From: an uncultured Gemmataceae bacterium
Lineage (GTDB): Bacteria; Planctomycetota; Planctomycetia; Gemmatales; Gemmataceae
Length of the DNA: 64,000 bases
Direction of reading: 5' to 3'
Assembly (NCBI GenBank): GCA_963750165.1
Contig: CAVVPN010000004.1
Location: forward strand, 640,001 to 704,000
Shown: piece by piece, positions 2,170 to 64,000 of the stretch
How positions within the stretch are numbered: the first letter of the stretch is position 1
Layout of the letters: the number at the start of each line of letters is the position of its first letter
Position numbers and translations under genes: made by a program
The notes under the pieces: generated by a model
What the model saw: the letters and a program-made list of their open reading frames with translations, nothing else
The model's database searches: none
What the model was told of the DNA's origin: nothing

Positions 2170-2769
2170 TTATAATTTCTCTCGGAGAATGCGAAGCACG
2201 CGCTCGAAAGAGGGAAGGTGCTTTTTTAGCGTTTCGGGGTCTACTTCCGGGAGGACTTCAAAGGACCGTTTTCCCTTGCGGTAGGCATTCGTGCATTTCC
2301 TCGTGGCGCGGACCAGAGCGTCCTGGATCTTGTGTCGGTGTCGAGCCTCCAGATCCACCAGGGAAGGCAACGCCCCTTTTTGCAATCCCGTTCCGTAATA
2401 CGCTTGCAAACCTGGCCGGTCGGAGACGATCCAGGTTTCCATGCAGGTCGTCATCAAAAGAACCTGGTCATCAGCGGCGCCCTCTGGCTTCTCCCAGCCG
2501 TCGCGTTCGTGCAGGTGTTCCCAAGCCTTCTCGATGTCAGACATGGGGTCTTCACTGTCGAGCAGCATCGCCACGAAATCGCCCCCGCGCATGGTTTGGT
2601 GGGCAATTGTGAAGCGAGCAAACATTGCCGCTCGTCCACCGCAGGCTACCAGTTTGGGTTGGCGGCCTGAGAAACCACACTTGTCCAGCAGTTTGCGAAA
2701 CCCTTCGCGGCAGCGGCGGCGCAATTCATCCGAATCCCCTCCACCTTCCAGATAGACGGTCGCGCTCAC
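2170..2769 (-). CDS. DUF4276-like protein (TOPRIM/RloB-like putative nuclease)
   Basis: Motifs VYLEGGG, ACGGR, LLDSED, CMETW and YRKGK. The likely GTG start at 2769 overlaps the ATPase TGA (GTGA, translational coupling); the ORF track extends the frame to 2802. Confidence 0.75.
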   Translation of the reverse strand: MSATVYLEGGGDSDELRRRCREGFRKLLDKCGFSGRQPKLVACGGRAAMFARFTIAHQTMRGGDFVAMLLDSEDPMSDIEKAWEHLHERDGWEKPEGAADDQVLLMTTCMETWIVSDRPGLQAYYGTGLQKGALPSLVDLEARHRHKIQDALVRATRKCTNAYRKGKRSFEVLPEVDPETLKKHLPSFERVLRILREKL

Positions 2770-7454: not shown

Positions 7455-8090
7455 TCACCCGTTCGTGTAGAACTCGCCCGACGACTCCAGGCCGAACCGG
7501 ATCGTTTGCAGGTTCAGCGACGAGGTCGCCCAGCCGGACACTTCGGCCGTACCCCCCTGGCGGTGCAGCAACCGGATGTAGTCCGCGGAGACCTGGTCGG
7601 TACGGTACTCCTGCCCGTCCACGAAGGCTGTGGCCAGCCCCGCCCGGCCGAGGCTCGTCACATCCGGTAGCACGTTGTTCACCTCCGCAGTGCTCGGAGT
7701 CCGGTTCAGCAGCAACTGATACAGGGCCTTGACGTAGTTGGTGTTCGCGTTCGTGCCGCCGATCAGCGCGTTGGCGTGGCTGGCGAACTCAGCCGTGGCG
7801 AAGATCTGCGACAGCACCTGGTCCTCGGTCTGACCGGCGGCCAGCAGGTTCACCCAGGTTTGCTCCTCGCCGTTCTGCGCCTGGCGGCCCAGGTAGGTGA
7901 CATACCAACCGTCCACCAGATGCGTCCGGGCCTCGGTGGTGTGCTCGACCGCGGTGACGACGTTCAACAGCTGGTTCGTGCTGGGGTTCGTGGGCAGGGT
8001 GTTCGCCCAGGCGTTGAGTTCGCTGACCGTGCCCAGGCGGCCCAGCACGTCGAAGTACAGGGACTGGATGTAACGTTGGTTGGCGTTCAA
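7455..8090 (-). other. C-terminal DUF4214-type helical region (putative cell-surface anchor)
   Basis: Four Y..(V/L)L.R repeats (YIQSLYFDVLGRLG, WYVTYLGRQA, YVKALYQLLLNRTP, DYIRLLHRQG) with helix ends ATAEF, DGQEY and SSGEFY. Confidence 0.8.
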
Positions 8091-43800: not shown

Positions 43801-46800
43801 GGAACTTGCCATCGGTGCTAATCTTGATGAGCACCATGCCGTTGAACAGCGCCTGCGAGGTGTAGATGTCGAACACCTTGGCGCTGGCGGTAATCAGCAT
43901 GGGCGAGGTGAACGCCGCCAGGAAGCCGTTCTCGCCCGGGTGTGATTGCAGCGTGATGAACTGCTGCAACACCTGCTGTTGCAGCGACGCCTGCCACTGG
44001 GCGGCGGTCTGCGATGTCGGCAGGCCGAAGTCGGAGTTGCGCAGGTCCTCGGGGTTGGTGATCGACGGCAGCGTCTTGAAGAACTCGACGCCGCCGGCGA
44101 AGTCGTCGATGGAGATGCCGGTCGGGCCGCCGATGTCGATGCCGCCGGGGATGTTCGCCTCGATGAACACATCGAGCGGCCCCAGCGCGCTCAGGCCGAA
44201 GCGGATGGTGAAGCCGGCCATGCCCGCGAAGGTGAAGCCGGCCTCCACGCCCAGGTAGAAGACGCGCTGGACCACCGGCGTCGTCGTGTCGGTGGGGTCG
44301 ATGATCGTGTTGTTGGCACTGATCCGGAGCAGGCCGCCAACCAGGCCGCCGCTGATCGTGCCGCCGAAGACGTTGCCGGTGACCGTCACGCCCAGCGAAC
44401 CGATGCCGATGATCGGGAACTGGCCCTGCAGCAGCAGCGACGGCTGGATCATGATGTCCGTGACCTCGCCGGAGAACGTCAGGCCGGGCACCCCCTTCAG
44501 GCCCATGACGGACGCGGACAGGTCGAGGATGAAGTCGCCCGGGTCTTGCTGGATGCCGTTGGGCCAGATCAGGCCGATCTTCTCAATCTGGATCGGCAGC
44601 CAGCTCGGCCAGCCGACGCCGCCGCCGCTCGTGGAGCCGACCGTCAGAAAGACGCCGAAGCCGGTCAGCGGCACGAAGGTGCCATCGCCCAGGAACTCGA
44701 AGTTGCGGGCCTCGCCGCCGATGCTCAGCGAGCCGATGTTGACCTGGGCCCCGACTGATATGAACGACGCCAGCGGTTGCGACGCGCTGGCGCCGGTATT
44801 AATCATCACCCCCTGGGCCGTCAGCGTCAGCAGGCTGCTGAGCTGGATCGAGAGGGTGTTGGCATAGAACTGGAAGGCGTTCACCTGGCCGTTGCTAAAC
44901 GTCAACGTGGCGCGGAGGGCGTCGGTGTCGGGCGTGCCGTCCGCGTTGAGGTGGTGCAGGGCCGGGTTGTAGGTGATCGACGCGGACACCGGCTTGCCGG
45001 GCAGGAAGGTGGCGCCACCCGAGGCGAAGAAGATGCTGCCGTTGAACGTCGTGCCGCCGGAACCGCCGAAGGTCATGCCGAAGTTCTGCACGCCGATGCG
45101 CAGGTCGTTGAACGACAGGATGCCAGGGATGCTGATCGGCTGGCCCGAGGTCGGCGTGTACGTCAGCTCGGCCGTGCCCAGCTGGAAGCCGTTGGCCCGC
45201 ACGACCAGACCCGGGATGGTCGGGCTGTTCGGGTCACTGGGGTTCGCGTTGAACGGGCTGATCGAGCCAGTGACGCCGAACGTCGGGAACATCACACTGG
45301 CCGACTCGACCACGACCAGTTGCTGATCGTCCGGGATGCTGCCGGTGATGCCGAGTTGCGCCACCGCCATGTTCGCCAGGGCGCCCTGGAAGGTCACGGT
45401 GTAGCCGGTGCCGGCCGTGGTGACCTTGACGTTGCCGGTGCCGATGCCGGGCAGCGCTTCGAGGTCGCTCTGCACCGTGGCGGCGGTGGCGCCGACGGCA
45501 ATGCTCGGCGTCGAGTTGCCGTTGTACGACAGCGTGAAGGCGCCGCGGGCGCTGATGACGTTGATCGCCTGCACAGCGCTGTCGCTGGCGTCGCCGGCCT
45601 TCGTGACCGTGACGCCATCATTCACGTCCGGGTTGTAGGTGACGACGATGCCGGAGGCGGTCACGTTGACCACGTTGGGCACGTCGATCTCCAGCGAGCC
45701 GACACGGAAGGTGAAGTTGCCCGGCACACTGATGCGGACGTGGCCGCTGAGCAGGCCGAACACATCGACGCCCACGTCGAGCAGGCCGAGGACGCTCGTC
45801 AACTTGGCGGTGACGCCGCTAAAGCTCAGCGTCGCCTGGTTGACGCTGACGGACAGTTCCAGGATCAAGAGGCCGTCCTGGAAGCCGATGTCCGCAATGC
45901 CGACCGACGGCCCTTGCAGGTTGAGCGGCCCAATGGTGAACGACTTGCCGGCGGTCGCCGGACCCGTGCTGGTCGCCGTGCTGGCGGTGAGCGTGAACTT
46001 CTCTGTCGAGGCGTTCATCTTGTTGCCGGCCAGGGTGCCGACGCTGTTGCCCTGGAAGTTCACATCGACTTCGCCAGGGCCGAACAGGTTGGCGTTGGTC
46101 GGGTCAGCCGGCTTCAGATAGTAGCGGTAGGTCGTGCCCGAGATCAACGTCGGCGGGCCGTCGAAGTCCGGGAAGCCGTTGCCCAGCATCGCGACGTTGG
46201 TGACGCCGGGGCCGCTCAGCTTGAATTCCTTGCCGGTGATGGTTGTCGGGTCGATGGCACTGCCGTCGCGGCTCTTGTAGGTCACGTCGATGAAGCGGCT
46301 GGAGTTCATCGTATCGACGCTGAGCGACTTGCCGTCCTTCGGACTGCTCAGCTTGGCCATCGGGCCGGCGGTCATGGTCCCGGTGCTCGGCGGCGGCGCA
46401 CCCGGCGGGTCGCCGGCGACGGTGCCGTTGACCAGCGTGAAGTGGCCGGTCTGGGCGAGGTTGCCGTTGCCGCCGTTGTCCTGGAAAACGCCGGTCGCGA
46501 AGTCCACTTCCACGTCGCCGGGCTGCGTGAACGAGCCGGTGAAGCTGAAGCGATACGTGTTGATCTCGTTCGGCACCTGGGTCGGCAGCTGGTTGACCGT
46601 GACGCCGGTCACCGGCATACCGTTCTCGCTCAGCGTGACCTTCGTGGCCGTGGTCAGGATGGAGGCGCTGTTGATGCCCAGGTTGTTCGGGTCCTCGACC
46701 TGCACGTCGAAGTAGCCCTGTGTGTTGAGGGTGTTGCGGTCGAGGATCTGGCCCTCATAGGGATTGGCCAGGTCCACGCTCGGCGGCTGCACCGGGGCCG

Positions 46801-49800
46801 GCGGCGTCGGCAGCGTCGCGCTCACGCCATAGATGGAGAAGCTGTTGACGTAGATGTCCTGCAGCTGGAAGCCGTCGGTGCCGCCGAGGGTGAAATCGAC
46901 CTGGCCGCCGACCGAGAAGGCTTGCTGGCCGTTGATGGTGATGGCCACCGAGGCGTTGCTGATGTCCACGACCACGGTGCCGTCCGGCTTCTTCGTGAAC
47001 GAGACGGTGCCCTGGATGTCCAGGACGCCGGCGACGGAAATGTGGATTGTGCCGACGAAGGAAGTCACCACGGCGGCCGTCGGGAAATTCAGCATGACGG
47101 AGCCGCCGCCGCCCGGGGCCGACGGATTCGGGATGGTCAGCGTCTGGTTGATCGCCGTGCCGGTGGTGTTGACCATCACGGTGGCGCTACCGGTGACGGT
47201 GAGGCCGTCCACGCCGAGCAGGCTGATGTCGCCGGTGGCGTACAGGGCAAAGGTGCCGTTGGGGAACTTGATGACGCCGATCTGGGCGTTGTTCAGCAGC
47301 ACGCCGACGGCGTTCGAGTTGATGGTGCCGTCCGGGTTCTTGTACGGGCCGGCACCGAGGAAGATCGCCAGGCCGGCGCCCGCGAAGGTCTGCACGCTCT
47401 GGCCGTTGATCGTCTGCGACGTGAAACTGATGCTGCCTTCGATGCTGACGAAGTTGGCGATGTTCAGTTCCAGGTCCGACGCGGCGGCGCCGAACAGCGG
47501 CCCGGCCCCGAGGTTGATGGTCAGCGAGTGGCCATTGACCGTGATGGTCTCGTCCACCGGCACGTTGAGCGTGCTGAACGACAGGGTGGCCGTGGCGCTG
47601 ACGCTGGTGCTGCCGCTGCCGGCCATGAGCTGGCCCGAGAGGACGCCGGCGACGCCGCCGTTCTCGATGACCATGCCCCCCTCGGCGCCGGTGATGCCCT
47701 GGGTGGTGCCGTCACCGGCGAAGCTCAGGTTCAGCGCCGCGATGCGCGTGATCGTGGTGCCGTCCGGCTTCGTGTACTGGTCGATGTAGAAGTCGCCGTG
47801 CAGCGTGTGCGAACCGCCGATGGTCACGTCGGTGTTGGTCGCCGTGACGCGGACGTACGGGCCGGCGGGCAGGCCGTTGGCCGCGACCGACTGCGTGTTG
47901 ATCGCCAGGCCGACCGTGGTCGTCAGCGAGAAGTAGCTGTCCACCGGCGAGCCGGCCGTCGTCAGGTTGGCGGACAGGCTGCCAGCGATGCCGCCGGACG
48001 TGACCTGGAAGCTGCCCTGGCCATTGGTCACGGTGAAGATTGGGCTGCCGCCGCTGGTGATCGTCAGGCCGACGTTACTGGCGGCCAGCGTCACCAGGGT
48101 TGTGGCGCCGCTGCCGGTCTGCGTGAAGCTGAAGTTGCCGGTCAGCGTCTGGCCGAGGATGCTCAGGCTGACGTTGTTGGCCTGCACCTGCAGGAACGGG
48201 CCGGCTGGCAGGTTCAGCGTCGTCGGCACGTTGTTCAGCGTGAACGTCTGGTTGATGGCGGCGGTGGTGTTGTTGATGTTCAGCTGGAACGTGCCGGACA
48301 GGAAGCTGCCGACCGTCACGGTCGCCTGCAGGGTGCCCGCCAGGCCGGCGCTGGTGACCAGGAAGGTGCCGCTGCCGCCGGTGACGTTGACGAACGGATT
48401 ATTCGGGTCGCCCAGGCCGAGGCTGACGTTGCTGGCCGTCAGCACCAGCCGCTTGACGCCCGCGGTGGTGTTTTCCTGGAAGCCGAAGTTGCCCTGCAGC
48501 GTCTGGTTCAGCACGGTCAGGCGGACGCTCTGGCCCGTGACCGTGACGCTCTCGGTGTTGGCCGGGGCAGTCACCGTGATCGGGTTGCCGTTGACGTCGT
48601 TGAACGTCTCGTTCAGGGCGGTGCTGTTCGTCTTGGCGATGGACACCGCGAAGTTGCCGGCGAAGGTGATGCCCGGCAGCGTCAGGCCGATGGTGGCGCT
48701 GAGCTGGCCGGCGAAGCCCGAGTCGTCGATCACCAGGTAGCCGCTGGCGTTGCTGACGTTGACGAAGTTGGCAGTGTCGTTGCCCAGGCTCAGGCTCAGG
48801 TTCGCCACGGTGATGCGGATGACCGGGTGGCCGGCGGCGTTGTTGGACTGCTCGAAGGAGAAGCTGCCCGACAGGCCCTTGCCCGCGACCGTGACCGACA
48901 CCGGGTTGCCGACGATGCGGATGAACGGCCCGGCCGGCAGGGTCAGCATGAACGTTTGGCCGGCGCCCGTGAACGTCTGGCTGACCGCGGCCGACGTGGT
49001 GTTAATGTCCAGCGTCAGGTTGCCGTTGAAGGCCAGCGGGATGTTCGTGGTCGCGATGGTGCCGCTGACCTGGGCCGCCACGCCGGCGGACGTCACCAGC
49101 AGGGCGCCGGTGCCGGTGAAGGTGACGAACGTCGTCGCCGTGCCGATTTGCAGCGTCAGGCCGGGGTTGCCCAGGGCGTTGACGGCGAAGGCGGTGCTGC
49201 CGTCCGCCTGTGTGTAGCGCTCGAAGGTGAAGTTGCCCTTCACCGCCAGGCCCATGAGTTGCAGCGACAGGTTGTCCACTTCCAGGCGGAAGAACGGCCC
49301 GGCCTGGATGTTCAGCGGCGGCAGCACCACGCCGTCGAGGGTGAACTGCTGGTTGACGGCCACGGTCATGGTGCTGACGGTGACAGTCACCTGGGCGCTG
49401 CTGGACAGGCCCAGGGCGGCGACGTTGAGGCTGACCGTGCCGGACACCGTGCCCGCCACGCCGGCGCTGTTGACCAGGAACTCCAGCGTGCCGTTGCTCA
49501 CCTGGAGATAATTGCTGGCGTTCAGGCTGAGCGTCAGGCCGATGTTGCTGCCGCTGACGAGGATCACCGGGTTGCCGCTGGCGTCCAGGGTGCGCTCGAA
49601 CGAGAAGTTACCCGAGAGCGTCTGGCCGAGGATGGTCAGGCTGGCGTTCGTGACCGTGACGTGGACATACGGCCCGGCCGGCAGGTTCAGCGTGACGGTG
49701 CTGCCGTCGGCCAGCGTCAGGGTGTCGTTGACGGCGGCGGTGGTGTTGTTGATGGCGACGCCGAAGGTGCCCGTGACCGTGACGCCCGGGATGTTGATCA

Positions 49801-52800
49801 CGACCGTGGCGCTGAGCTGGCCCGCGAAGCCGGCGCTGGTCAGCAGGAAACTGCCCTGGCCGTTCGTGACCTGCACGAAGTTGGTGGTGCCGTTGCCCAG
49901 GTTCAGGCTGACATTGCTGGCGGCCAGGCGGATGACCTGGTTGTGGCTGGCGTCGGTCACCTGCTCGAAGGCGAAGTTGCCCGTCAGCGTCTGGCCGGCG
50001 ATGTTCAGCGTCAGGCCCTGGCCGGACACCTGCAGGAACGGCCCGGCGGGTTCCGTCAGGTTGACCGTCTGCGTGCCCAGGGTCAGCGTCTCATTGACCG
50101 CCATGCTCGTCTGGTTCAGGCTGATGCCGAAGGTGCCGCTGAAGCTGACGCCCGGCACGTTCAGGGCGACCGTGGCGGACAGGCTGCCGGCGATGCCGGC
50201 CGACGTGATGACCAGGTAACCGTGGCCGTTCGTCACCGACACTGCGGGCGTGCTGCCGCTGCCCAGGCTCAGCGACACGTGATCGGCGGTGATCAGCGTG
50301 ACGGGGTTGCCGGCGCCGTCGTTCATCTGCTGGAAGGCGAAGTTGCCCGTCAGCGTCTGGCCGAGGACGTTGAGCGTGATGCCGGTGCCCTGGACCTGGA
50401 CGAACGGCCCGGCCGGCAGGCTGGTGGTCTGCGTGATTGGGGCCGTCGTGACCGTCGCGGTGGCGGTGCTGTTGATGAGCATCAGCGCCGCGGCGATGGC
50501 GGCCTGCACGTCGGCGGCGCTGGCGCCGAACGGAATCGGCGTCGTTTGCTGGCCGCCGACGGTCAGCGTGTAGGTGCCGCCGTTGGCCGCCACCGAGATC
50601 TGGTAATTGTTGCCGCTACCGCTCAGGCCGAGCGCCGGCAACGGCACCAGCAGCGAGCCGTCCAGGCTCAGCACTGGCTCGGACATGTTGGCGAGCGTGC
50701 CCTGGAAGGTGATGGTGTAGGTGCTGCTCGACTGCGCGACCGCCACATTGCCGCTGCCGATGCTCGACAGGCCAACGAGGGCGGTCTGCACCTGGGCGGC
50801 GGTCGCGTTGTAGGCGAGCGGGGCGGTGGTCTGACCGTTGAAGGTCAGCGTGAAGGTGCCGCCGCCGGCGACCACGGACACCTGCTGCACCTCGCTGACC
50901 GTCGGGCCGCCCTGCGTCGTGATGGTGACGTTCGTCGAAGGCGGCCGGCTGACCGCGACGAGGGCGGAGCTGTTGAGCAGCAGCGCTGCCAGCGTCTGGT
51001 TGGCGAGCGTGCCCTGGAAGGTGACCGTGTAGGTGTTGCCCGATTGCGTGACCGTGACATTACCGGTGCCGATGTTGCTCAGCGCCGCGAGGGCGGTCTG
51101 CACCTGGGCGGCGGTCGCGTTGTAGGCGAGCGCCGCGGTGGTCTGGCCGTTGAAGCTCAACGTGAAGGTGCCGCTGCCCGCGGCGACGGTCATCTGCTGC
51201 ACCTCGCTGGCGCTCGGCACGCCCGGCGTCATGATTGCCACGACCGCGGTCGCCGTCAGGGCGGTGCCGTTGATGGTCAGCAGCGGCTGCGTCGGCGTGG
51301 CCAGGCCGTTGACGAAGGTGATCGTGTAGACCGTGGCGGTGCCGGTCGTCGTGGCAGTGACACTAACGTTGCTCTGGTTCTGGAGGTTGCGGCCGATGTT
51401 CGACAGCGCCACCAGGGCGCCCTGCACCGTCGCGGCGCTGGCGTTGTAGGCGATGGGGGCGGTGGTCTGACCGTTGAAGCTCAGCGTGAAGGTGCCGCCG
51501 CCCGCGTTGACCGTCACCGTCTGCGCGTTGCCGGTCGCGGCCGCCACGCTGGCGATCTGGCCGTTCGCCAGCAGGTTCGCGCCACTGACGGACAGGACCG
51601 GCAGGTTCAGATTGGCGAGCGTGCCCTGGAAGGTGATCGTGTAGACGTTGCCCGTCAGCATGACCGCCACGTTGCCGGTGCCGATGTTCGACAGCGCCGC
51701 CAGGGCGCTTTGCACGGCGGAAGCGCTGGCGTTGTAAGCGATCGGGGCCGTCGTCTGGGCGGTGCCGGTCGGCGTGGCCTGGAAGCTCAGCGTGAAGGTG
51801 CCGCCGCCGGCGATCACCGTCACCGTCTGCACAGCACTGGTCGCGGGCTGACCAGCCGTGACGCGGTTGGCGGTCGCCTGCGGTTGCAGGCCGCTGTTGC
51901 TCGCGGCCAGCGTGCCGGTGACGCCGTTGAGGAAGGTAACCGTGTAGGCGTTGCCGGTCAGCGTGACCGTGACGTTGCTGGCGCCAACGCTGGACAGGCC
52001 CTGCAGGGCGGACTGCAGCGCGCTCGCGGCGGAGCCGACGGGGATCGGGGCGGTGGTTTGATTGCCGAAGGTCAGCGTGAAGGTGCCGCCGCTCGCCTGC
52101 ACCGTCACCGTGTCAACGCTGGTCGGGCTGCTCGTGCTCGGCGTGACCGCTACCGTCGGCGTGCCGGTCACCGGCAACAGCGCCGTCGTGGTGGCGGTCA
52201 GCGGCAGCAGGTTCTGGTTGCCGAGTGTGCCCTGGAAGGTGATCGTGTAGACGTTGCCCGCCTGCGTCACCGTGACGTTGCCGCTGCCGACGTTGCTCAG
52301 GGCGGCGAGGGCATTCTGCACCGCGGTCGCGCTGGCGTTGTAGGCGATGGCGGCGGTGGTCTGCGGCGTGTCATTGGCGTTGGCCTGGAAGGTCAGCGTG
52401 TAGGTGCCGCCGCCAGCCGCCGTCACCGTCACCTGCTGGACGTTGTTCTGCATGTTGCCGCCGGCCGTCTGCGTTGTCGCCGTCACGGTCGGCGTCGGGC
52501 CGGTCAGGTTGGCGGTGTTGACGGTCAGCAGGGCGAGGCTCTGGTTGGCGAGCGTGCCCTGGAAGGTGATCGTGTAGGTGTTGCCCGTTAGCGTCACCGC
52601 GACGTTGCCAGTGCCGATGTTGCTCAGGGCCGTCAGGGCGTTCTGCACGTCGGACGCCGCCGCGTTGAAAGCAAGCGCGGTCGTGGTCTGGCCGTTGAAG
52701 CTCAGCGTGAAGGTGCCGCCGCCGGCCAGCACGGTCAGCGTCTGCACCTCGCTCTGGCTGCCGCCCGGCGTCTGAACGGCGACGCTGGCCGACGGGTTGA

Positions 52801-55800
52801 CCTTGAGGTTCGTGCCGTCAATCGCCAGGGCCGACACGTTCTCGTTCGCCAGCGTGCCCTGGAAGGTGACGGTGTAGGTGTTGCCCGCCAGCGTCACCGC
52901 GACGTTGCCGTTGCCGATGCTCGACAGGCCGGTCAGGGCGGTCTGCACCTGGGCGGCGGTCGCGTTGTAGGCCAGGGCCGCGGTGGTCTGGCCGTTGAAG
53001 CTCAGCGTGAAGGTGCCGCCGGTGGCGACCACAGTCACCGTCTGCACCTCGCTGGTGCCGGCGTTGCCCGGCGTGGTGACGGCTACCGTCGCGGTCAGGC
53101 CGCCGGACAGGTTGGTGCCATCGGCGGTCAGCGTCGGGGCGGTGCCGCCCGCGAAGGTCACGGTGTAGGTGTTGCCGATGGTGATGCTCTGCGTCACCGG
53201 CGCGGTCAGCGTGTTGAACTGCGCCTGCAGCGTGCCGCCCAGGGTGACGCCCGGCACGTTCACCGCCACCGTGCCGCCGATGCTGCCGTCCAGGCCGGCG
53301 GACGTGATCAGCAGGTTGCCGCGGCCGTTGGTGATCGACACCACCGGCGTGCTGCCGCCCAGCGTCAGCGCCGCGTTCGCCACCGACAACTTCACCAGGC
53401 GGTTGCCGCTGCTGTCGAGCGTCTGCTCGAAGGTGAAGTCGCCGCTCAGCGACTGCTGCAACAGCGTCAGCATGACACCGGTGCCGGCGACGCGCACGTA
53501 CGGCCCGGCCGGCAGGTTGAACGTCTGGTTGACGCTACCCTGCGTCACCGTGATGGCGTTCTGGTTGCTGGTGAACAGGGACTGCACGGCGCTGAGCACG
53601 TCGGTGTTGCTGGCCCGCACGGAGATTGGGGCGGTGGTCTGATTGTTGGCAGTCAGCGTGAAGGTGCCGCCGCTGGCGACCACGGAGACGATGTACTGGT
53701 TCGCCCCGGCGCCCGGCGTCACGGTCAGCATCTGCAGGCCGACGGCGCCGGTGCCGCTGGCGGTCGGCGCCGCGGTGCCGGCCGGCAGCGTGATGGTGTA
53801 GGTGTTGCCGACCGGGAACGTCACCTGCACCGGCTGGCCGGTCTGGTTCAGGGCCAGGCTGAAGTTGCCGCCAAGGGTGACGCCCGGCACGTTGACGTTG
53901 AGCGTGCCGTTCAGGCTGCCGACCAGGCCCTGGGCCGTCAGGTTCAGGAAGCCGACGCCGCCGGTCAGGCTGACGAAGGTGTGCGTGCCGTCGCCGAGGC
54001 TGATGCTGAGGTTGGCCACCGTGACGCTCACGACCTTGTTGCCGTTGCCGTCGGTGGACTGCTGGAAGCTCAGATCCGCCGTGAACTGCTGGCCGAGCAG
54101 ATTCACCGCCAACCCGGTGCCGGCGATGCGCACGTACGGCCCGGCCGGCAGGTTCAGGCTGAGCGTCGTCGTGCCGACCGTCAGCGACTGGTTGACCGCC
54201 ACCATGCCGGTGTTGACCTGCACGGTCAGGTTCGCCAGGCTCAGGCCCGAGATGGCGACGCTGCCGCTGACCTGGCCCGCCAGGCCGGAACTGCTGATGA
54301 CGAAGAAGCCCTGGCCTTGCGTCAGGCTCGCCACCGGGGTCGTGCCGGCGGTGAAGGTCAGCGACACGTTGTTGCCGCCGAACATCAACTGCTTCGTTGG
54401 CGGCGCTGCCGAGTTGGCCGCGGCGGGCAGCGTCACCTGCTGGAAGGTGAAATCGCCGGTCAGTGTCTGGCCGAGCACATTCAGGCTCAGGCCGTTGGCC
54501 TGGATCAGCAGCAGCCCGGACTGGATGGTGATATTCGCATTCGTAGCCGGGTTCGGCAGCGTCACGGCGCCGGCGGTCGAGTTGAGTTCGAGCAGCAGGT
54601 TGCCGAGCGTCAGGTTGGCGAAGCCGCTGACGTTGAGCGTGCCCGAGGCGCTGAGAACGGCGGCGAGGCCGGCGTTGCTCGAGCTGCACCGAACCGTTGA
54701 TGGCTGTCAGGCTGACGTTGTTCGAGCTGTCGCCCAGCGTCAGGGTGCCGTTGGCGACCGTCGCCAGGAAGGTGCCGGCCTGGGCGCCCTGCGTGAAGGT
54801 GAAGTCGCCCGTCAGCGTCTGACCGAGGATGCTCAGGCTCAGGCCGGTGCCCTTGAACAGGGCGTAACTGCCGCCGGACTGGGCCGGGGCCGGGACGGTG
54901 ACGGCCGCGTTGAACGGGTCGGTCCAGGCGGTGGTGCCGTTGTTGAACTGCACCGTCGCCATGCCGGAGAACGAGGCGGCGGACAGGCCGAGCAACTGCA
55001 CCGTGCCCGTGGCGTAAACGCCATAGTGGCCGTTGGCCAGTTGCTCCACGTCCACCGTGGCGTTCGCCAGCAGGACGCCGCGGGCGGCCGGGTTCATGGC
55101 GCCGCCGGGCAGCGTCGCCGGGCCCTGGCCGAGGAAGATGCTCAGGTTGGTGCCGTGGAAGGCGCTGTGGCCGTTGACGTTGCTGAACGTCACCGAGCCC
55201 TCGATGGTCGCGAACGGCGGATTGCCCAGGCTGATGTTGCCCGAGCCGGTGATCTGGAACACGTCGCTGCCGTCCGGGAACACGATCGACAGCGTCTGGC
55301 CGCCGACGGTAATCATCTCGTTAACCGGCAGCTTGGAGTTGTTCATCTGCAGGCCGATGCTGGCGTTGGCGCTGACGCCGCCGCCGCTGGCCGAGGCGGT
55401 GCCCGACAGGAAGCCGGCCAGACCGCCGGAGCCCGGCACCGTCGGGTCGGGCGGCAGCAGCACGAAGGCGCCCTGGCCGCTGCCCAGGTGCTGGCCGTTG
55501 AACGTCAGGCTGACGTTGGTCGCGGCGACGCGCGTCACCGTCCGCGTCACCGGGTTGGCGGTGCCGGCGCCGGAAACCGTGTCGGTTTGCTGGTCGAGGA
55601 AGAAGTTGCCGGTGATGGCGACGCCCGCGCCGCCGCCGGAGCCGAGCGTCAACGTTGCGCCGTCGGCCTCGACGCGCACGAACGGCCCGGCCGGGATGTC
55701 CACTTCCATCGTCTGGCCTGGCAGCGTGTTGGCCGGGATGGTCGCGTTCACCATCGACGTGTTGAGCGCGATGTCCAGGGTAGTCGCGGCCAGTGTGATG

Positions 55801-58800
55801 GCGCCCGGCAGGCTGAAGGTGGTGCCGCTCAGCGTCAGTTCGCCGGCGACGCCCGCGCTGGTGATGACGAAGAAGCCGTTGGCCCCGGAGACGCTCAGGA
55901 TCGGGCTGCTTGGGTTGCCGAGCGACAGCGACACGCCGGTGAACGCCGCAGTGATGACCTGGCCGACGTTCGGCTCCGTCACCTGACGGATGGCCACGGT
56001 GGTGGCGCCGAGCTGCTGGCCGAGGATGTTCAGGCTGAGATTGCTGCCGTCGATCTCCAGGCTGTTGGCGGCCAGCGTCGCGGTGATTGGGGTGGTGAGG
56101 GTCTGCGTCGCGCTGGTCGTGTTCAGCGACAGCGTGAAGGTGCCGGCGAAGGTCACCTGCGACACGTCCACCACGACGGTCGCCGCCACCACACCGTAAA
56201 GGCCGGCGGCGGTGATGACGAACTGGCCGTTGATGCCGGTCGCTCGCACCAGTGTCGTGCCGCCACTGCTCAGGCCGATCTCGCCGTTCGTGACCGCCAC
56301 GGTGATGAGGTTGCCCAGCGCCGGGTTGCTCGGGTTGACCTGCTGCTGCTGGAAGCTGAAGTTGCCGCTCAGCGTCTGTGTCACCCCGCCGAGCGTCAGC
56401 ATCAGCGACACGTTCGACGCATTCACCTCGACGAACTTGCCCGCCGGCAGGTTCAGCGTCACCGACGACGTGCCGACCGTGAAGCTGTCGTTGACCGGGC
56501 TGGTCGTGGTGTTGATCGCCACCGTGAAGGTGCCGCTCAGCGCCACGTTGGGCACGTTCAGCGCCGCGGTCGCGGTCAGGCTGCCGGCCAGGCCGCCGGA
56601 CATGAGCAGGAAATCGCCGCTGCCGTTCGTGACCGACAGCAGGTTGCTGGAGCCGTCGCCCAGCGTCAGGCTGACGCCGCTGGCGCCGACATGCACCACT
56701 GGCTGACCGTTGACGGTGTACTGCTCGAAGAGGAAGTTGCCGGTCAGCGTCACCGCGCCGGCGATGGCCAGGCGGACGCCGGTGCCGCTCACCTGCAGCA
56801 GCGGCCCGGCCGGCAGGGTCAGCGTCGCCGTGGTGCCGCCGACCGTGAACGTCTGGTTGACGGCCGTCGTGCCGGTGTTCAGCGTCAGCCCGAAGGTGCC
56901 TGCGACCGACAGGCCCGGCACGTTGACCGCGACGGTTGCCGACAGCTGACCCGCCACGGTGCCGTTGGCGATAACGAACAGGCCGGTGCCGCCCGTCACG
57001 CTCACCAGGCCGCCCGCGAGCATGAGTTGCACGTTGCTGGCGGCGATCTTCACGACCGGCGTGCCGTTCGCCCCGGTCGCCTGCTCGACGCTGAAGCTGC
57101 CGCTCAGCGACTGGCTCAGGACCGTCAGCGTGCCAGTGCCGGCGATCTGCAGGAACGGCCCGGCGGGCACAGCCGTCGGCAGCAGCGTGCCGGCGGCGAA
57201 CGCGGTCATCGAGTTGTTGAACACCAGCGCCAGCGAGCCGGTCAAGCTGACGCCCGGCAGGGCCACGCTCACGGTGCCGCTGACGCTGCCGGCGGCGCCC
57301 TGGCCGTTGAGGTAAATGTCGCCCTGGCCGTTGGTCAGGCTCAGCACCGGCGTCGCGCCGCCGAGGCTCAGGGCGGCGTTGCTGACGGCGACGTGTACAT
57401 CCTTCTGGCCCTGGGCGTTGGTGCTCTGCTCGAAGCTGAAGTTGCCGCTCAGCGTCTGGCCGACGATGTTCAGGCTCAGGCCGGTGCCGGACACCTTGAA
57501 ATACGGCCCGGCCGGCACGGTCAGCGTCACCGGCGTGGTGCCGACCGTGAACGTCTGGTTGACCGCGGCTGTCGTGGTGTTGAACGCCAGCGCCACGCTG
57601 CCGCCGACGCTCACGCCGCCGGCCATCACGGCGATGGTGCCACTGACCTGACCCGCGATGCCAGCGGAGGTGATGAGCAGCGTGCCCTGGCCCTGCGTCA
57701 GTTGCAGCAGCGGGTTGGTGCCGTCGGTCAGCGTCAGCGTCAGGTTCGCCACGGTGACGCTGGTGACGCCGGTGCTCTGCTGGAAGGCGAAGTCGCCGGT
57801 CAGCGTCTGGCCGAGCAGGCTGAGCGTCACGCCGGTGCCCATCACCTCGACGTACGGCCCCTTCGGCACGTTCAGCGTCACGGCCTGGCCGCCGACGGTG
57901 ATCGACTGATCGACCGCCTGCACGGTGTTGTTGATGGCGAGGCTGAACTGGCCGCTGAAGTTGACCGGGGCGCCCGGGACGGTGATGGCGACGTTGCCAG
58001 AAATCTGGCCGGCGACACCCGTGCTGGTGAGGAGGAAGGCCCCCTGACCGTTGGTCAGGCTGACGATCGGGGTGCTGCCCGCGGTGAAGGTGAGGCTGGC
58101 GTTGCTGATGCCGACCACGGTGGAGGTGGTCGCGCCGGTCGTGGTTTGCTGGATGGCGAAGTCGCCGGTCAGCGTCTGCCCGAGGACGGACAGCGTGACA
58201 CCGGTGCCGGAGATTTGCACGAATGGCCCGGCGCGGACGTTAATCGTCAAGTTGACGTTGTCGATCGGCAGCACCTCATCGACGGCCGCCGGGGTCGTGT
58301 TGATGGCGACGCCAAAAGTGCCGCCGAAGGTCACACCCGGCACACTCGCCGCCACGGTGCCGCTGAACATGCCCGCCACGCCGGCGCCCGTCGAGATCAG
58401 GGCGCCCTGGCCGCCCGTCAGCATCACCGCGCCGCCGCCCAGCGACAGCGTCACGTTGCTGGCGCCGATCTCCAGCTGGGTGCCGCTCGCGGTCGTCACC
58501 TGGTTGAAGGCGAAGTTGCCCGTGAGCGTCTGGCCGAGGACGCTCAGCTGGGCGTTCAGGGCCTGGAAGCTGGTCACCAGGTCGCCGGTGGCGAACGTGA
58601 TCTGCACGCCGCCGGTGCTGCTGCCCGGGATCGACAGGAACTGGTTGATCGGCTGACCGGTCGTGTTCACCAGCACGCTCGCGGTGCCGGCGATGGTGAC
58701 GCCGCTGATGCCGACGATCTGCACACTGCCGCTGGCGTTCAGGGCGAAGGTGCCGTTGCCGAACTCCATGACGCCGACCTCGGCGTCGCCGATGAGCACG

Positions 58801-61800
58801 CCGGTCGCCAGCGGGTTGAGGTCGCCGTTGGCCAGCAGGGCCGGGCCCTGGCCGAGGAAGATGCTCAGGTGATCGCCCGCGAACACCTGCACTGACTGAC
58901 CGTTGACCGTCTGGCTGCTGAAGCTGACGTTGCCCTGCAGCGTCACGAAGTTGCCGATGTTGATCGTCAGGTTCGACACCGACACCGCGAACAGGTTGCC
59001 CTCGCTGGCGCCGAAGTTGATCGCGATGCTCTGGCCGTTGACCACGATCGTCTCGTTGACGGCCCCCGGCGTCGTGTTGATGCGGAGCAGGATGTTGCCG
59101 CCCGCCGACACGCCGCCGCCGCTAACCGTCGCGGTGCCGGACAGCACGCCCGCGATGCCCGTCGTGTTGACGCCTTGCAGACTCGTCGTGATCTCGACCA
59201 GGCCGCCCTGTCCGTTCGTCAGCGACACCGAGCCGCCGCTGACCGTGACGTGCGCCAGGCCAATGCTGAGGACCTGGGTGCCGTTCGGGTCCGTCTGCTG
59301 TTGGAGGAACAGGTCGCCCGTCAGCGTGTAGGTCGTGCCGCCGACCGAGATGGTCGCGTTCAGGTTCGTCACCATCACCCGCAGGAACGGCCCGGCCGGC
59401 AGCGTCAGCATCTGGCCGCTGACGAACGGCTCGGAAACCGCTTGTGAGGTGGTGTTGACCTGGATGCTGATGTTGCCGGTAATCGAGGCGAAGCCCGGCA
59501 GGCTCAGCGTCGCGTTGGTGCTGAAGGAGCCAGCGATGCCCTGCGGGTAAACGATCAACTCGCCGTTGCCATCGGTAATGTTCACGAGGGGCGTGCCGCC
59601 GACGGTTAGCTGGACGTGCAGGTTGGCCACCGTCGCCTTGACCACCGCGGCGCCCGTCGAGTTGGTGCCCTTCTGGAAGGTGAAGTCGCCGCTGATCTGC
59701 TGGCCGGCGACGGTCAGCGTCACGCCGGTGCCCTGGATTTCCACATACGGCCCCATCGGCACCGACAGCGTCACCGGCGTCATGGTGCCGGGGACGGTGA
59801 AGCTGGCGTTGACCGCGTTGCCGGTGGTGTTGACCAGCACGCTGAGCGTGGCGCTCAGGCTGACGCCCGGGACACTGACGCTCACGGTGCCGCTGCCCTG
59901 GCCGGCGATGCCCGCGGGGGTCAGCACGAAGTACGCCGAGCCGTTGCTGAGCGTCACCAGACCGCCGCCGAGCGACACGTTCAGGTTGGCGACGCTGATG
60001 CGGACTTCCGTCTGGTGCGTGGTCGCGTCCGTCGTCTGATCGAAGCCGAAGTCGCCCGTCAGCGACTGGCCGAGCACCATCACCGTCAGGCCCGTGGCGG
60101 CGAAGCGCACGAACGGCCCGGCCGGCACGTTCAGCACCACCGAACCCGTGCCCACCGGGATCGTCTCGTTGACCGCCTGGCTCGTCTGGTTGATTTGCAG
60201 CGTCAGGTTGCCCATCACCTGCACGCCCGGGATGTTGACCGTCAGCGTGCCGGACAGCTGGCCGGCGACGCCCGCGGCGGTCAACACCAGGCTGCCCTGG
60301 CCGTTCGTCAGTGAGACGTAAGGGTGAATCACCTGCACCACGGCGCCGGTGCTGTCCGTCTCGGCGTTCAGCCGGCCGCTGCTGGTCAGTGTCAGCACGG
60401 TGTCCGTGACCGCCGCGACAGTGTAGGTGCCGTTGTCCGCGCTGGTGCCGGTGACCAGGATGGTATTGCCGACCTGGAAGCCGTCGCTGTTCCAGCTGCC
60501 GGCGCTGCGGGTGACGGTGTCGCCGCCAGTCAGGGGGGCGAACGTCAGCGCCGGACTGCCGGTCGCCTGGGCGCCGCCGCTGGTGTCGCCGAGCACGAAG
60601 TTCACGTTGCTGGCGGCGACGAGGACCACCGGGTTGGCGTTGCCGTCGGTCATCTTCTCGAAGGTGAAGTTGCCCGTCACGGCCTGGCCGGCGACTGCCA
60701 GCTGAATGTTGGTGCCGGCCACTTGCAGGTACGGCCCGGCCGGCAGCATCAGCGTCACCGCCACGCCCGCGACCGTGAAGGTCTGGTTGACCGCAGCCGT
60801 TGTCGTGTTGATCTGCAGGCTGAACTGGCCGCTGAAGTTCGCCGCGGGGATCGACACCGTCGCGCTCGAGCTGGCCCGCCAGGCCGGCGGCGCTCGCCAC
60901 GAAGCTCCCCTGACCCTGCGACACCACCACCAGGTTCGTGCCGCCGGACGCGAACGTCAGGCCCACGTTTGTGGCCGCCACGCTGATGAGCGAACTGCCG
61001 TCGGGCTGCGTCAGTTTCTCGAAGGCGAAGTTGCCCGTCAGTGTCTGGCCGAGGATGCCGAGGCTGACGTTCTGGCCCGAGACGTGGACGAAGGGCCCGG
61101 CCGGCACGTTAATCGCCGTGCTGCTGCCCGCCGGCATGAAGCTGACCGCCGCCGACGTGGTGTTGAGCGCCAGGTCGAACTGGCCGCTGAACGTCACCTG
61201 CGGGATGTTGACCGCCACGCTGGCGCTGAAGTCGCCGGCCAGGCCGGCGCTGGTCACCTGCAGCGCGCCGCTGCCCTGCGTCACCGACACAATGGGGGTG
61301 CTGCCGGAGCCCAGCGTCAGGCCGACGTTGCTGCCCTGCACCACCAGCGACTGGAACTGGCCCTGGGCGGTCGTCGTCTTCGTGAAGCTGAAGTCGCCCG
61401 TCAACGACTGGCCGAGCACCGAGATCGTCAGGGCGGTCGCGGTGAAGGTATCGACCTGGTCCGTGGTGCTGAAGCTGAGCAGGACGTTCTGCGTCGTGCC
61501 CGGGATGCTCAGCGTCTGGTTGACCGTCTGGCCGCTGTCATTGACGCGGACGTGGGCGGTGCCGCTGACCGTCACGCCGGTGACGCCGAGCAGCTGCACC
61601 GTGCCGGTCGCGTCCAGGGCGTAGGTCGCAGTGCCGCCGCTGGTGAACTTGATGACGCCGATGTTGGCGTTGGCCAGGTACAGGCCCGTGGCGCCCGGGT
61701 TGATGTCGCCGTTGTCCAGCGTTGCCGGGCCCTGGCCCAGGAAGATGCTCAGTCCGGTGCCCGCGAACTCCTGCACCGCCACGCCGTTCAGCGTCGTGTT

Positions 61801-64000
61801 GGTGAAGGACAGGCTGCCGCCGATGGTGATGAAGTTGTCGATGTTGAGCGTCAGGTTGGCGCCATAGAACTGCGTGAACGCACTGCCGCCCGAGGCCACC
61901 TCGTTCGGCCCGAACAGGATGTTGACGCTGTGGCCGCCGATGGCGATGGTCTCGTCCACGGCGTTCGGCGTCGAGTTGATGCGGAAACCGATGTCGCCGC
62001 CGGCACTGAAGCCCGGCACACTGGCCGGCGGCGTCATCACCATCCCGGACAGGAAGCCGGCGACGCCCGCGGTGCTGATGATGAAGCCGCCCTGGCCGTT
62101 GCCCAGGACGTTGCTGCCGCTGACCGCCAGCGTGATGCCCGTGGCGGCAAAGCGCGTCACCGTGCCCTGCCCCGCCACCGTCGTCTGGTCGAAGCTGAAC
62201 GAACCCATCAGCGTCGCCGCGCTGCCGACCGTCAGCGACGCGCCAATCGCGGTCACGCGGAAGAACGGCCCCATCGGCTCGACCAGTGGCTGGCTGGCGC
62301 CGGTGATCGTCTCGTTGACGGCGACCGGCATCGTGTTCACGTCGATGACAACGCTGGTGGCGGTCAGCGTCACGCCCGGCACCGCGAAGCTCGCCGTCAC
62401 CGCGAAGTTGGCCGCGATGCCCTGCGCCGTCAGCAGGAAGGTGCCGCCGCCGTTCGTCACGTTCACGAAGGTGGTGCCGCCGGCCGCCAGCACCAGCATC
62501 AGGCCGTTCACCGAGAACGTCACCACCTTGCTGCCGTCGGTCGCCGTGGTCTGCACGACGGTGAAGGTGCCGGTGGGGGTCAGACCGATGGTCTGGCCGG
62601 CGATGCTCAGGCTCACGCCGGTGCCGGAGACGCGGACGTAGTTCGGGGCCGTGATCGTGTTCACGTCGATGGTGAACGCGCCGGCCAGCACCTGCACGCT
62701 CGGCAAATTGACGGCCAGCGTCGCGGTGATGCTGCCCTGGATGCCGTTGCTCTGGACCGTCAACATGCCCGAACCGGTGGCCTGGACCAGCGTGTTGGTG
62801 CCGTCGCCCAGGCTCAGCACCACGTTGCTGGCGGTGACCATCAGGACATGATTGACGTTGTCCTCGCTGAAGCTGAAGTCGCCGCTCAGCGACTGGCCGG
62901 CGGCCGTCAGCATCAGCCCGGTGCCGCCGAAGCGGTTGCTGTTGGCCGGGACGCTCAGCGTCTGCGTCACGCCATTGACCGTGATGCTGCGGTTGATGTC
63001 CGTCGTGAAGGTGCTGCGCTGGAAGCTCAGCGTGCCGGACAGGCCCAGGTGCTGGATGCCGACCAGTTGCACGCTGCCGCCGGCCTGCACCGCGATTCCG
63101 CCGGGGGCGATCAGCATCGCCAGGCTGGCGCCGCTGACCTGCACGCCGACGTTGTTGGCCCCGACGAAGATGCTGACGCCGGTGGCCGCGATCAGCACTT
63201 CGGTGAAGTCGTCCGCGGTGCCGAGCACACCGTCGGGGCCGGGGTTGGTCGATTGCTGGATCGCGAAGCTGCCGGTCAGCGTCACGCCGGCGACCATCAG
63301 GCTGACGTTGTCGGCGCCGAAGCGGCTGGTGCCGGCCGGCACGGTCAGCGGCGTCGAGGTGGCGCCGATGGTGACCGTGTGCGCGGCGCTGGTGGTGGTG
63401 TTGCGCTGGGCGTGCAGGTTGCCCATGAAGGTTACGCCGCTGATGCCGACGACGCTGGCGGCGCCGCTGGCGTCGAAGTCGTAGGTGCCGTCGGGCTCAA
63501 TCACGGCCAGCAGGGTGCCGCCGGTCACCTGCACGCCCAGCGTCAGCGTGCCGCCACTCATCTGGCCGGCGGCGAAGCTGACGTTCGTGGCGGAGATGCT
63601 GATCTCGTTGGTCGTCGCGTTCTTCGCGATGCCGAAGCTGCCGCTCAGCGTGGCGACCGGCGTCGTCAGCGTCAGCACGGTGCCAGTCCTGGTGCTGATG
63701 GTGTAACTGGTGCCGTTGGTGGTGTCGGCGTTGACGTCGATAGTGCCGCTCAGGCCCAGGTCGCTCAGGCCAGTCAGGGCGACCGTGCCCTCGGCGGTCA
63801 GCGTGAACGAGCCGGCCGGGTGGACGCTCACCAGGTAAACGCTGGCGTTCAGGCTGGCGTTGGTCAGCGACAGGCCGACGCCGCTAGCCCCGATGAAGGC
63901 GCTGACGCCCGACGCGGTGATGGTCAGCATCGTCGGGTGGCCCTGGGTGTCGAAGGTCACCTGGAAGCCGAACATCCCGCTCAGGGCGACGAAGCTCTGG
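7455..64000 (-). CDS. Giant multi-repeat cell-surface protein (adhesin-like), at least 18,847 aa when three 1-nt frame breaks are joined; 5' end lies beyond the window
   Basis: The ORFs 59122-63975, 53535-60857, 34778-54565 and 7455-34781 share composition and repeat families. Each of the first three turns into out-of-frame sequence exactly where the next frame continues the same repeat (~60867, ~54680, ~34814). The frame is open to the right edge (QSFVALSGMFGFQ). Codon sum: 1044+2062+6622+9119. Confidence 0.85.
8300..14200 (-). repeat. About 29 tandem 60-70 aa repeats (beta-helix-like stalk)
   Basis: Consensus FTLTNTSLSSTDGLSLTLSGITTANLTDTAGGHTFTVSGWTGTGSLTD.....DTVVASKAGG, counted by the conserved W. 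DNA copies are near-identical in 8440-10500. Confidence 0.9.
16180..28460 (-). repeat. About 27 dispersed or tandem 85-100 aa G.TW modules
   Basis: Consensus TLTGTPAVGETWTLTLDG.TYSYTV..GDTLA.VA.GLAAAI......A...G..LTV, i.e. beta strands plus one amphipathic helix. Confidence 0.85.
25990..26480 (-). other. PPC-like (pre-peptidase C-terminal) beta-sandwich domain
   Basis: HDSIYTAQNL...DYYSFTIT...IFDM...SRLELLDQAGNLIA...DDRLTYTF..PATYYLVV...NYVLQVS. Confidence 0.7.
28500..29260 (-). other. Two Calx-beta-like domains
   Basis: YTVVLTQAP...LIFDRTNWFIPQTVTVTAPDD and YALVLTKQPTTNV...FSPANWDVPVIITVMAV. Confidence 0.65.
29410..31540 (-). repeat. Degenerate RTX/hemolysin-type GGxGxD repeats
   Basis: GGSGNDVF, GGTGNELY, GGTGNDTY, GGQGDSDF, GGDGTNTF, AQAGNDIF and GGLGSDIF. 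Confidence 0.75.
33075..34235 (-). repeat. Five tandem ~75-aa TITR..GSW..DGF modules (single copies also at ~34860-35095 and ~60330-60565)
   Basis: Consensus PTLTF....DTITRSAGSW..DGF..GQ.I.VQGT..NDG.YTI..VT.T.LTL.....L.NE. Confidence 0.85.
34814..54679 (-). CDS. Giant protein segment 3 (6622 aa; ORF track 34778-54565)
   Basis: The frame is already meaningful upstream of the called GTG (SNAGLAAVLSASGTLNVSG...). Contains PAGP beta repeats, an EVQ-domain array, Ig-like domains and RTX-like repeats. Confidence 0.9.
36900..39330 (-). repeat. Second degenerate RTX-like block
   Basis: GGSGNNIF, GGAGTDNI, GGGGSDIL, GGQGSDTF, GSGNDNI, GGTGNDNF, GGAGNNLF and GAGGNDNI. Confidence 0.75.
42040..46790 (-). 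repeat. Six bacterial Ig-like domains (two at ~46000-46790, four at ~42040-43570)
   Basis: Consensus ATL.NP..G......LN..GYIDVTF......D..S......PT.V.GTTYRY.FTG....G.VTVNFIAG.FKD..GN....T.TFTV. Confidence 0.75.
50450..53810 (-). repeat. Array of about 10 ~100-aa EVQ modules
   Basis: Consensus SEVQTVTVVAGGGTFTLSFNGQTTAALAYNATAAQVQTALAALSNIGTGNVAVT..GNTYTITFQGTLAN. Dispersed copies near 45580, 31900, 21735, 17945 and 17035. Confidence 0.9.
54681..60866 (-). CDS. Giant protein segment 2 (2062 aa; in-frame part of ORF 53535-60857)
   Basis: About 16 PAGP beta repeats. The translation becomes Arg/Pro/Gln-rich out-of-frame sequence after ...INGSVQL at 54681. Confidence 0.88.
60868..64000 (-). CDS. 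Giant protein segment 1 (at least 1044 aa, 5'-truncated; in-frame part of ORF 59122-63975)
   Basis: Same beta repeats. Out of frame after ...AGLAGQL at 60868. No stop codon between 63975 and the window end. Confidence 0.88.

Follow-up and report, generated by a model that had tools for sequence, protein, structure and literature searches.

The giant gene and its repeat array

The 64,000-nucleotide stretch analysed here (the window) comprises positions 640,001 to 704,000 of contig CAVVPN010000004.1 (assembly GCA_963750165.1) from an uncultured Gemmataceae bacterium, whose genome (G000; 9.6 Mb, 93% complete) carries on the minus strand of this contig (C4) a single giant gene. Its stop lies at position 7,455 and its start beyond the right edge, at window-equivalent ~87,178 (G000:C4 ~727,178). 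The codon-position GC content shows one coding tract, which the assembly divides into six overlapping open frames through five frame changes of a single base each. Read with an X at each of these changes, it yields a protein of ~26,570 residues without an internal stop and with a GC content at third codon positions (GC3) of 0.89-0.95. The subject of this report is an array of ~122-amino-acid (aa) repeats in this protein, which is predicted to form a long beta-groove.

An iterated hidden Markov model (HMM) yielded 96 repeat matches between residues 402 and 13,449, and the refined profile resolves 95 full repeats. The stretch 46,811-64,000 represents the last 40% of the array, which goes on for 22 kb beyond the right window edge. 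Between 46,900 and 64,000 we observed 39 overlapping matches (one repeat is split by an insert) that correspond to 37 full repeats and one partial repeat (47,086-46,811), in line with the "about 35" amphipathic beta-meander repeats counted in an earlier model-generated reading of this DNA (the sequence-only reading). These repeats take up 4,667 of the 5,698 codons (82%) at a mean pairwise identity of 33%; in the control, 20 shuffles gave 0 matches. The same reading described a strict alternation of hydrophobic and polar residues, Gly turns and few charges. Alternation indeed lies far above that of shuffled sequences (lag-1 autocorrelation of -0.157 and lag-2 of +0.118 with a shuffle standard deviation of 0.015, that is 8-10 standard deviations), but it is broken by a mid-strand bulge and is thus not strict. 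The composition agrees, with 5.0% D/E/K/R and 13.6% Gly. Moreover, four diverged copies of the repeat form a second short stretch, with other domains lying between it and the main array (Table 1).

The statement that no family can be assigned to the repeat holds for Pfam and NCBIfam, neither of which contains a match. Likewise, 28 three-repeat segments scanned at E<=10 gave scattered weak matches only (among the best 25 of 43 families), a sequence search of the PDB returned nothing below E 0.088, and comparison with the Atlas yielded unnamed clusters only, with low recognition values. The literature searched, which covers few subscription papers, yielded no definition of the repeat and no link between it and lipid grooves; a preprint on the giant protein Cag_663, discussed below, alone comes close.

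Table 1. Features of the giant gene, positions in the window (modelled segments and frame breaks included)
Feature	Position	Strand	Remark
Giant gene	7455..64000, continuing past right edge	-	~26,570 codons in all
Repeats 59-95 and partial 96th	46811..64000	-	~122-aa six-strand beta-meander; HMM
Four diverged repeat copies, second short stretch	40088..41551	-	hhalign probability 87.6%, best copy
Three repeats, AlphaFold2 model	56817..57869	-	28 sequences; predicted local distance difference test (pLDDT) 90.5, predicted template modelling score (pTM) 0.79
1.5 repeats alone, AlphaFold2 model	57351..57869	-	43 sequences; pLDDT 90.2, pTM 0.79
~75-aa inserted module	60342..60563	-	10 copies in protein; in strand 3-4 loop of repeat
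Second, ~90-aa inserted module, ten copies	50405..53716 (53,716-53,495 one; 53,071-50,405 nine)	-	hairpin tips
Two ~125-aa domains directly after groove	45974..46777	-	four more at 43,555-42,026; placement kept in distant relatives
~590-aa unnamed domain after groove	43568..45337	-	45-63% identity, six best of 12 matching relatives
62/125-aa periodic region	8253..14252	-	sequence periodicity
DUF4214 (PF13946)	7779..7922	-	C-terminus, E 8.5e-12
Frame break, one extra base	60864..60871		at GCTCGAGC; relative G099 reads through, 60% identity
Frame break, one extra base	54677..54684		gene's only other GCTCGAGC site; G099 reads through, 51% identity
Frame break, one base short	34805..34820, near 34,811		without clear motif
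Two frame breaks outside window	~75,986 and ~85,061		both at G4 runs

Frame breaks

The repeat stretch 46,811-64,000 is read in three frames because two of the five frame breaks fall within it (Table 1). Both GCTCGAGC sites of the gene coincide with a break, and throughout the source genome the codon phase is shifted at 14 of the 42 testable GCTCGAGC sites, always in the same direction, as compared with ~3% at two control hexamers (75/2,370 and 68/2,494) and 136/1,964 at G5 runs. Judged from these sequence comparisons, the five breaks are probably assembly errors, and the insertion at GCTCGAGC possibly reflects methylation of a GCTNAGC site that led to an error in the consensus. That the giant gene is a decaying pseudogene with five real breaks is hardly credible: five breaks do lie within 80 kb, but ~26,500 codons without an in-frame stop, the high GC3, the one-directional shifts at GCTCGAGC and the read-through of both breaks within 46,900-64,000 in the relative G099 argue against decay.

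In this genome GCTCGAGC marks a systematic one-base insertion, which calls for caution with other apparently "broken" genes of the assembly. CTCGAG is rare in the same genome (763 sites vs 5,722 for CAGCTG). The G099 gene itself lies in three frames, with two frame changes at positions that differ from those of G000; many such giant genes are therefore probably annotated as fragments.

Predicted fold of the array

The AlphaFold2 models of three and of 1.5 repeats contain six strands of 12-15 residues plus a short hairpin per repeat. In the three-repeat model, DSSP assigns strands throughout save for one 3-residue helical turn, which is consistent with the near absence of helix noted from the sequence. 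The pairing of the strands was further scrutinized by mean-field covariation, an approach that shares only part of its input with AlphaFold2, employing 1,869 of 1,966 repeat matches (>75 columns; the database copy of a fragment of the gene itself was excluded) and 1,549 neighbour pairs. Consecutive strands within a repeat pair antiparallel. Moreover, the neighbour pairs reveal antiparallel couplings between strand 6 of one repeat and strand 1 of the next (z-scores of 15.9, 12.8, 11.2, and 10.5), which are present in 6 of 6 half-samples and disappear when non-neighbouring repeats are paired. This junction indicates that the repeats are joined into one continuous sheet. The sequence-only reading had proposed a continuous curved sheet with one hydrophobic face and had set against it independent closed beta-sandwich domains; models and couplings agree on the former, and the pairing across repeats speaks against the latter.

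The hairpin packs on the outside, as 19 of its 20 strongest coupling partners lie on the outer face. The strands carry Gly (45%) and Ala (20%) in their midline columns, and the wall residues are large aliphatics with a mean side chain of ~90-94 Å3. Charged residues make up 0.7% of the inner vs 17.2% of the outer face, an inner-face figure that is partly circular given that the faces were assigned from a hydrophobicity table. In the giant protein, charge occurs at 10 of the 3,148 inward positions, and these fall without exception in two rim columns. Taken together, the models and couplings argue that the array is very probably a continuous beta-taco.

All six inserts in the main array, including one of 911 residues, are confined to loops; the hairpin takes up four of them and the strand 3-4 loop two. 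Across the whole repeat set, 37 of 48 large interruptions are located at the hairpin or junction, though some of these may be undetected repeats. The ~90-aa modules at the hairpin tips leave the sheet strands uncut; they match no Pfam family above cut-off. Look-alikes of this module were found in unnamed Atlas clusters of Actinomycetota and Planctomycetota, and the module is present as well in the giant protein of another genome, G511.

Two alternative arrangements were rejected. Seven strands with a crossover hairpin resembling that of repeating beta-groove (RBG) proteins are inconsistent with DSSP and covariation, which give six strands and place the excursion on the outer face. Tandem immunoglobulin (Ig)-like adhesin beads do not account for the pairing of strands across repeats or for fold alignments spanning three repeats.

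Structural matches and length

Fold searches were performed with VIA-align (48,161 chains in the search with 1.5 repeats) and evaluated on the best 50 matches of each of four lists. The best matches of the 1.5-repeat model were two LptC structures, with Z 9.3 and a root-mean-square deviation (rmsd) of 3.3 Å over 130 of 173 residues and Z 9.0 and 3.5 Å over 126, respectively, both barely above the range of 7-8 that the tool states for chance. E. coli LptC gave Z 7.9 (3.2 Å, 115 residues) and LptA Z 7.1 (3.5 Å, 114), and LptA/LptH and LptD chains were among the listed 1.5-repeat matches. With three repeats, the best match among those listed was the beta-belt of apoB100 (Z 17.1, rmsd 7.7 Å over 266 residues; also Z 13.9, 6.5 Å over 282), the fold alignments extending over all three modelled repeats. 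Membrane barrels aligned with three repeats mostly at an rmsd of ~15 Å, and barrels head one other list. Chains titled VPS13, ATG2, YhdP or TamB were not found among the matches listed.

The length of the array was scaled between 4.2 Å per strand, as in YhdP (60 strands in 250 Å; PMC10592960), and 5.1 Å per strand, as in the apoB belt (120 strands in 61 nm; PMC11839476). The 570 strands of the whole array would thus span 240-290 nm, and the 222 strands of 46,900-64,000 would contribute 93-113 nm.

Distribution and relatives

At E<=0.001, a two-repeat profile matched 1,797 cluster representatives, the best 150 of which were examined. The named carriers include Verrucomicrobiota, Planctomycetota, Rokubacteria, Alphaproteobacteria, Methylococcaceae, an Olavius symbiont and several Actinomycetota, namely Microbacterium (WP_360134932.1), Phycicoccus, Propionibacterium sp., Gaiellaceae, Solirubrobacteraceae and Ilumatobacter. 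Most of these names are labels of metagenome-assembled genomes, for which misbinning is possible. Actinomycetota are devoid of an outer membrane and of lipopolysaccharide (LPS); their presence among the carriers therefore rules out an inner-to-outer-membrane role for the repeat family as a whole. Judged from the profile searches, the repeat is a real, unnamed and widespread unit of bacterial giant proteins.

The relative G099 (G099:C10:83910-114854) contains 31 repeats and shares with the giant protein the N-terminal cap, the post-groove domains, the periodic C-terminal region and the end. Its repeats correspond nearly one-to-one, and in the same order, to repeats 65-95 of the G000 array, with 24 of the 31 best matches on the diagonal, and 21 of 28 well-supported cherries in the repeat tree join the G000 and G099 proteins. 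In the extra 64 repeats of G000, block duplications are evident at offsets 9, 21 and 30. The repeat number is 5 for G171, 31 for G099 and 95 for G000. In G511, a LEPRxLL frame of 15,320 aa gave 17 matches at E<0.001 between residues 540 and 6,071 (whole-sequence E 4e-22; reversed control E 1); G511 belongs to the same family as the Chlorobium-labelled locus L055. FG-GAP domains were detected in 6 of the 13 relatives scanned. In some relatives the groove is fused to an enzyme: P0051 carries a non-specific endonuclease (E 5.5e-45), and P0017 and P0060 an M10-like peptidase motif that scores no higher than the cut-off.

Flanking domains and neighbouring genes

In Pfam and NCBIfam scans of the whole giant protein, DUF4214 alone exceeded the cut-off; we take this C-terminal domain to be its probable cell-surface anchor. 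The N-terminus bears a variant LEPR-XLL motif that goes undetected by HMM NF012209, and repeat-bearing relatives are annotated as LEPR-XLL or score above its cut-off. The ~590-aa domain after the groove is the best-conserved part of the giant protein and, by profile comparison, not a copy of the repeat. It contains a predicted amphipathic helix near 44,311 and is a candidate loading or docking head. The ~125-aa domains next to it may be Ig-like, and the periodic region further downstream may be a parallel beta-helix stalk. A search for transmembrane helices throughout the giant protein yielded one 19-residue window reaching a Kyte-Doolittle (KD) value of 2.0, at residue 7,378 inside a repeat, and none at the N-terminus. 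Likewise, neither groove end is flanked by a transmembrane helix or a clear membrane-entry helix.

The neighbouring genes include DUF1559 and DUF1501, and a scan of 9 nearby frames revealed no transport or secretion gene. At 2766-4013, downstream of the giant gene, lies a gene for an AAA_21 (AbiEii-type) ATPase with lower GC content (~60%), a possible defence or toxin-antitoxin insert. The source genome also contains a second giant open frame of 8,964 aa (G000:C3:2564291-2564464) without a match to the ~122-aa repeat.

Possible function of the array

Based on the models, we tentatively favour the reading that the array is a contact rod which binds lipids or other hydrophobes in the distal part of a giant adhesin anchored to the cell surface, and assign it a probability of roughly 0.45. 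The six long antiparallel strands of each repeat would add to one unbroken sheet and would bend at the Gly/Ala midline into a U, giving an LptC/LptA-like beta-taco with an aliphatic inner face; the hairpin and every large insert would be placed outside or along the edges. As a whole, the array would constitute a twisted rod of ~240-290 nm in the N-terminal half of a secreted-type giant protein. As the DUF4214 end would hold the protein on the cell surface, the grooved rod would be its distal part. The narrow groove may open, as in the Lpt proteins, for acyl chains or similar hydrophobic material taken from whatever the cell touches, such as the envelope of another cell, lipid or wax. Holding such material on contact would make the array a long lipid-binding contact element of the adhesin, the length of which could be tuned by the repeat number.

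In favour of this reading speak the junction couplings, the pTM of the three-repeat model, the LptC/LptA and apoB100 matches, the Gly/Ala midline, the scarcity of inward charges, the outward hairpin and inserts, the variable repeat number and the FG-GAP domains of relatives. Several observations weigh against it. The carriers are patchy, comprising 10 of 200 genomes of the family and 1 of 300 of the phylum. In addition to the near-chance scores of LptC, DUF3224 barrels follow closely behind with 1.5 repeats (Z 8.2, 4.1 Å), and Foldseek returned nothing at E<=0.001 with the 1.5-repeat model and, overall, barrels and OspA variants only, at a TM-score of <=0.27. The uncharged inner face, apart from the circularity mentioned above, would be matched by any protein core. 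Finally, wall-to-wall couplings to strands 2-5 ahead have a mean z of 0.78, vs 0.04 for couplings that run the opposite way (p 3e-4, 104 pairs per direction). This asymmetry had the same direction in 6 of 6 half-samples, with p<0.05 in only 3 of them. The directional couplings suggest that the walls probably touch, and consequently a narrow twisted taco that is perhaps filled. By analogy, such a taco could be filled or could be open for acyl chains like the Lpt grooves. The groove or tube proposed in the sequence-only reading therefore stands as regards the continuous sheet and its best solved matches, which are lipid-handling (LptC/LptA and the apoB100 belt), while these wall-to-wall contacts speak against an open passage. 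One further cross-wall coupling, 59-29', was discarded, as it appears in the non-neighbour control too.

The same contacts would suit a purely structural stalk, in which the core is filled as the two walls, or the faces of two chains, come together, and the array serves as a rigid spacer presenting the inserted adhesive domains without any cargo. We regard this as rather unlikely, although it is consistent with the cross-wall couplings 61-9', 59-40' and 49-9' (6 of 6 half-samples; z<2 in the non-neighbour control), the large aliphatic wall residues, the variable repeat number with growth by block duplication, and the lack of a transmembrane helix. Moreover, face-to-face dimers have been modelled for Cag_663 (10.64898/2026.03.19.712371). 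However, the cross-wall couplings are few and reach a top z of 7.7, vs up to 22 for strand neighbours. In addition, a midline rich in Gly and Ala and the top matches to LptC/LptA, whose groove accommodates acyl chains (PMC10345924), speak against the stalk.

A bulk flow of lipids or hydrophobic molecules through the array, as an extracellular bridge between the cell and a partner or prey cell, appears improbable. The sheet would be unbroken through ~95 repeats with every insert outside the groove, the fold resembles the Lpt bridge, and Cag_663, which has a similar description, is present in the partner bacterium within its consortium. Against such a conduit stand ~13,000 residues of other domains between the C-terminal end of the groove and the putative anchor, the lack of membrane helices at either groove end and of transport genes among the frames scanned, and the possibility that the walls touch. 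A broader proposal, that the repeat builds extracellular lipid bridges of up to ~290 nm in planctomycetes, verrucomicrobia, actinomycetes and green sulfur bacteria, which exchange lipids or hydrophobic molecules with touched cells or draw them from these, the clefted half of Cag_663 being of the same family, is unlikely as well; if true, such bridges would be ten times as long as any known one. An amphipathic belt, with the sheet flattened on a hydrophobic surface such as a membrane, vesicle or droplet, is very unlikely: apoB100, likewise a continuous amphipathic sheet with inserts (PMC11839476), heads the three-repeat matches, but with 1.5 repeats it fits far worse (Z 6.0, 8.3 Å) than LptC at 3.3 Å, and the cross-wall couplings imply a folded U.

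Taken together, the models predict an exceptionally long beta-groove, which may handle lipids. Small fragments of 3-8 repeats and the Microbacterium relative WP_360134932.1 make the function of such giant proteins testable, and the repeat offers a defined building block for the large portion of them that lacks annotation.

Comparison with known systems

With the Lpt bridge (LptC, LptA and the N-domain of LptD) the array shares the local geometry, the hydrophobic inner face and the extension of the sheet edge to edge. The repeat models have the U-shaped antiparallel beta-taco that characterizes this bridge, with scores (LptC Z 9.3, LptA Z 7.1) modestly above the chance range. The Lpt groove carries acyl chains (PMC10345924). 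The two differ in that the Lpt bridge consists of short subunits, whereas here one chain provides ~570 strands, in the extra outer hairpin, and in sequence (7-13% identity). The occurrence of the repeat in bacteria without an outer membrane also argues against LPS transport. In the source genome LptD_N (PF03968) gave three weak matches, none over cut-off and none in the giant gene.

The sequence-only reading had likened the region to TamB/YhdP/AsmA-like proteins and VPS13/ATG2 and had named DUF6603-type proteins for comparison. AsmA-like and RBG proteins form a long continuous curved sheet of repeats with an uncharged hydrophobic face (PMC10345924, PMC10592960), a feature shared by the array. 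However, the RBG module comprises five antiparallel strands and a loop (PMC10345924), whereas the repeat has six all-antiparallel strands, an outer hairpin and an antiparallel junction. Unlike AsmA-like proteins, the giant protein is devoid of an N-terminal transmembrane helix; it is probably extracellular, and the array has ~10 times the length of YhdP. TamB (PF04357) had 0 matches at E<=10 in the source genome, with 6 of 14 control genomes over cut-off, and DUF6603 (PF20248) likewise had 0 at E<=10, a negative of uncertain sensitivity given that no control genome was over cut-off either. Membership in these families is thus not borne out. By the features tested, the array is groove-like in shape, as are Lpt, AsmA-like and RBG proteins, without being a member of them.

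The belt of apoB100, a continuous amphipathic sheet with interstrand inserts around a lipid particle (PMC11839476), shares the continuous amphipathic meander and the inserts. It is a non-repetitive belt of 120 strands and 61 nm, whereas the array consists of repeats, takes a U shape locally and has 4-5 times the length; the identity is 8%.

Among bacterial giant proteins, Cag_663 of Chlorobium chlorochromatii comes closest. According to the preprint (Kuzyk et al., 10.64898/2026.03.19.712371) it is a LEPRxLL-type protein with protruding inserted domains and a C-terminal beta-helix, whose first ~13,000 aa form, in the published model, an extended and twisted sheet along which a hydrophobic cleft runs without interruption. 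It was detected in the partner bacterium, and cleft-to-cleft dimers and delivery into the partner cell were proposed. The words "lipid" and "VPS13" are absent from the main text of that preprint. The likeness, a clefted sheet of ~13,000 aa as compared with an array ending at residue ~13,450, rests on description rather than on sequence comparison. The Cag_663 gene adjoins TolC/SapC genes (10.64898/2026.03.19.712371), in contrast to the 9 nearby frames scanned here, among which no such gene was found. A 36,800-aa frame was not found in the 122 genomes searched from the family to which G501 belongs; another giant protein of that family, the one in G511, carries the repeat. Giant proteins of Omnitrophota are described by West-Roberts et al. 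(10.1101/2023.11.21.568195) as containing hollow antiparallel beta-helix tubules of ~1,500 aa with exterior helices or sheets. They share a predicted long antiparallel beta structure with the array and differ, by description, from its ~13,000-aa groove of 122-aa repeats.

The lipid-carrying beta-grooves compared here are intracellular or periplasmic, and YhdP measures ~25 nm and the apoB belt 61 nm. With the repeat, a groove of this geometry would be part of a rod that is probably extracellular, adjustable in length and up to 240-290 nm long.

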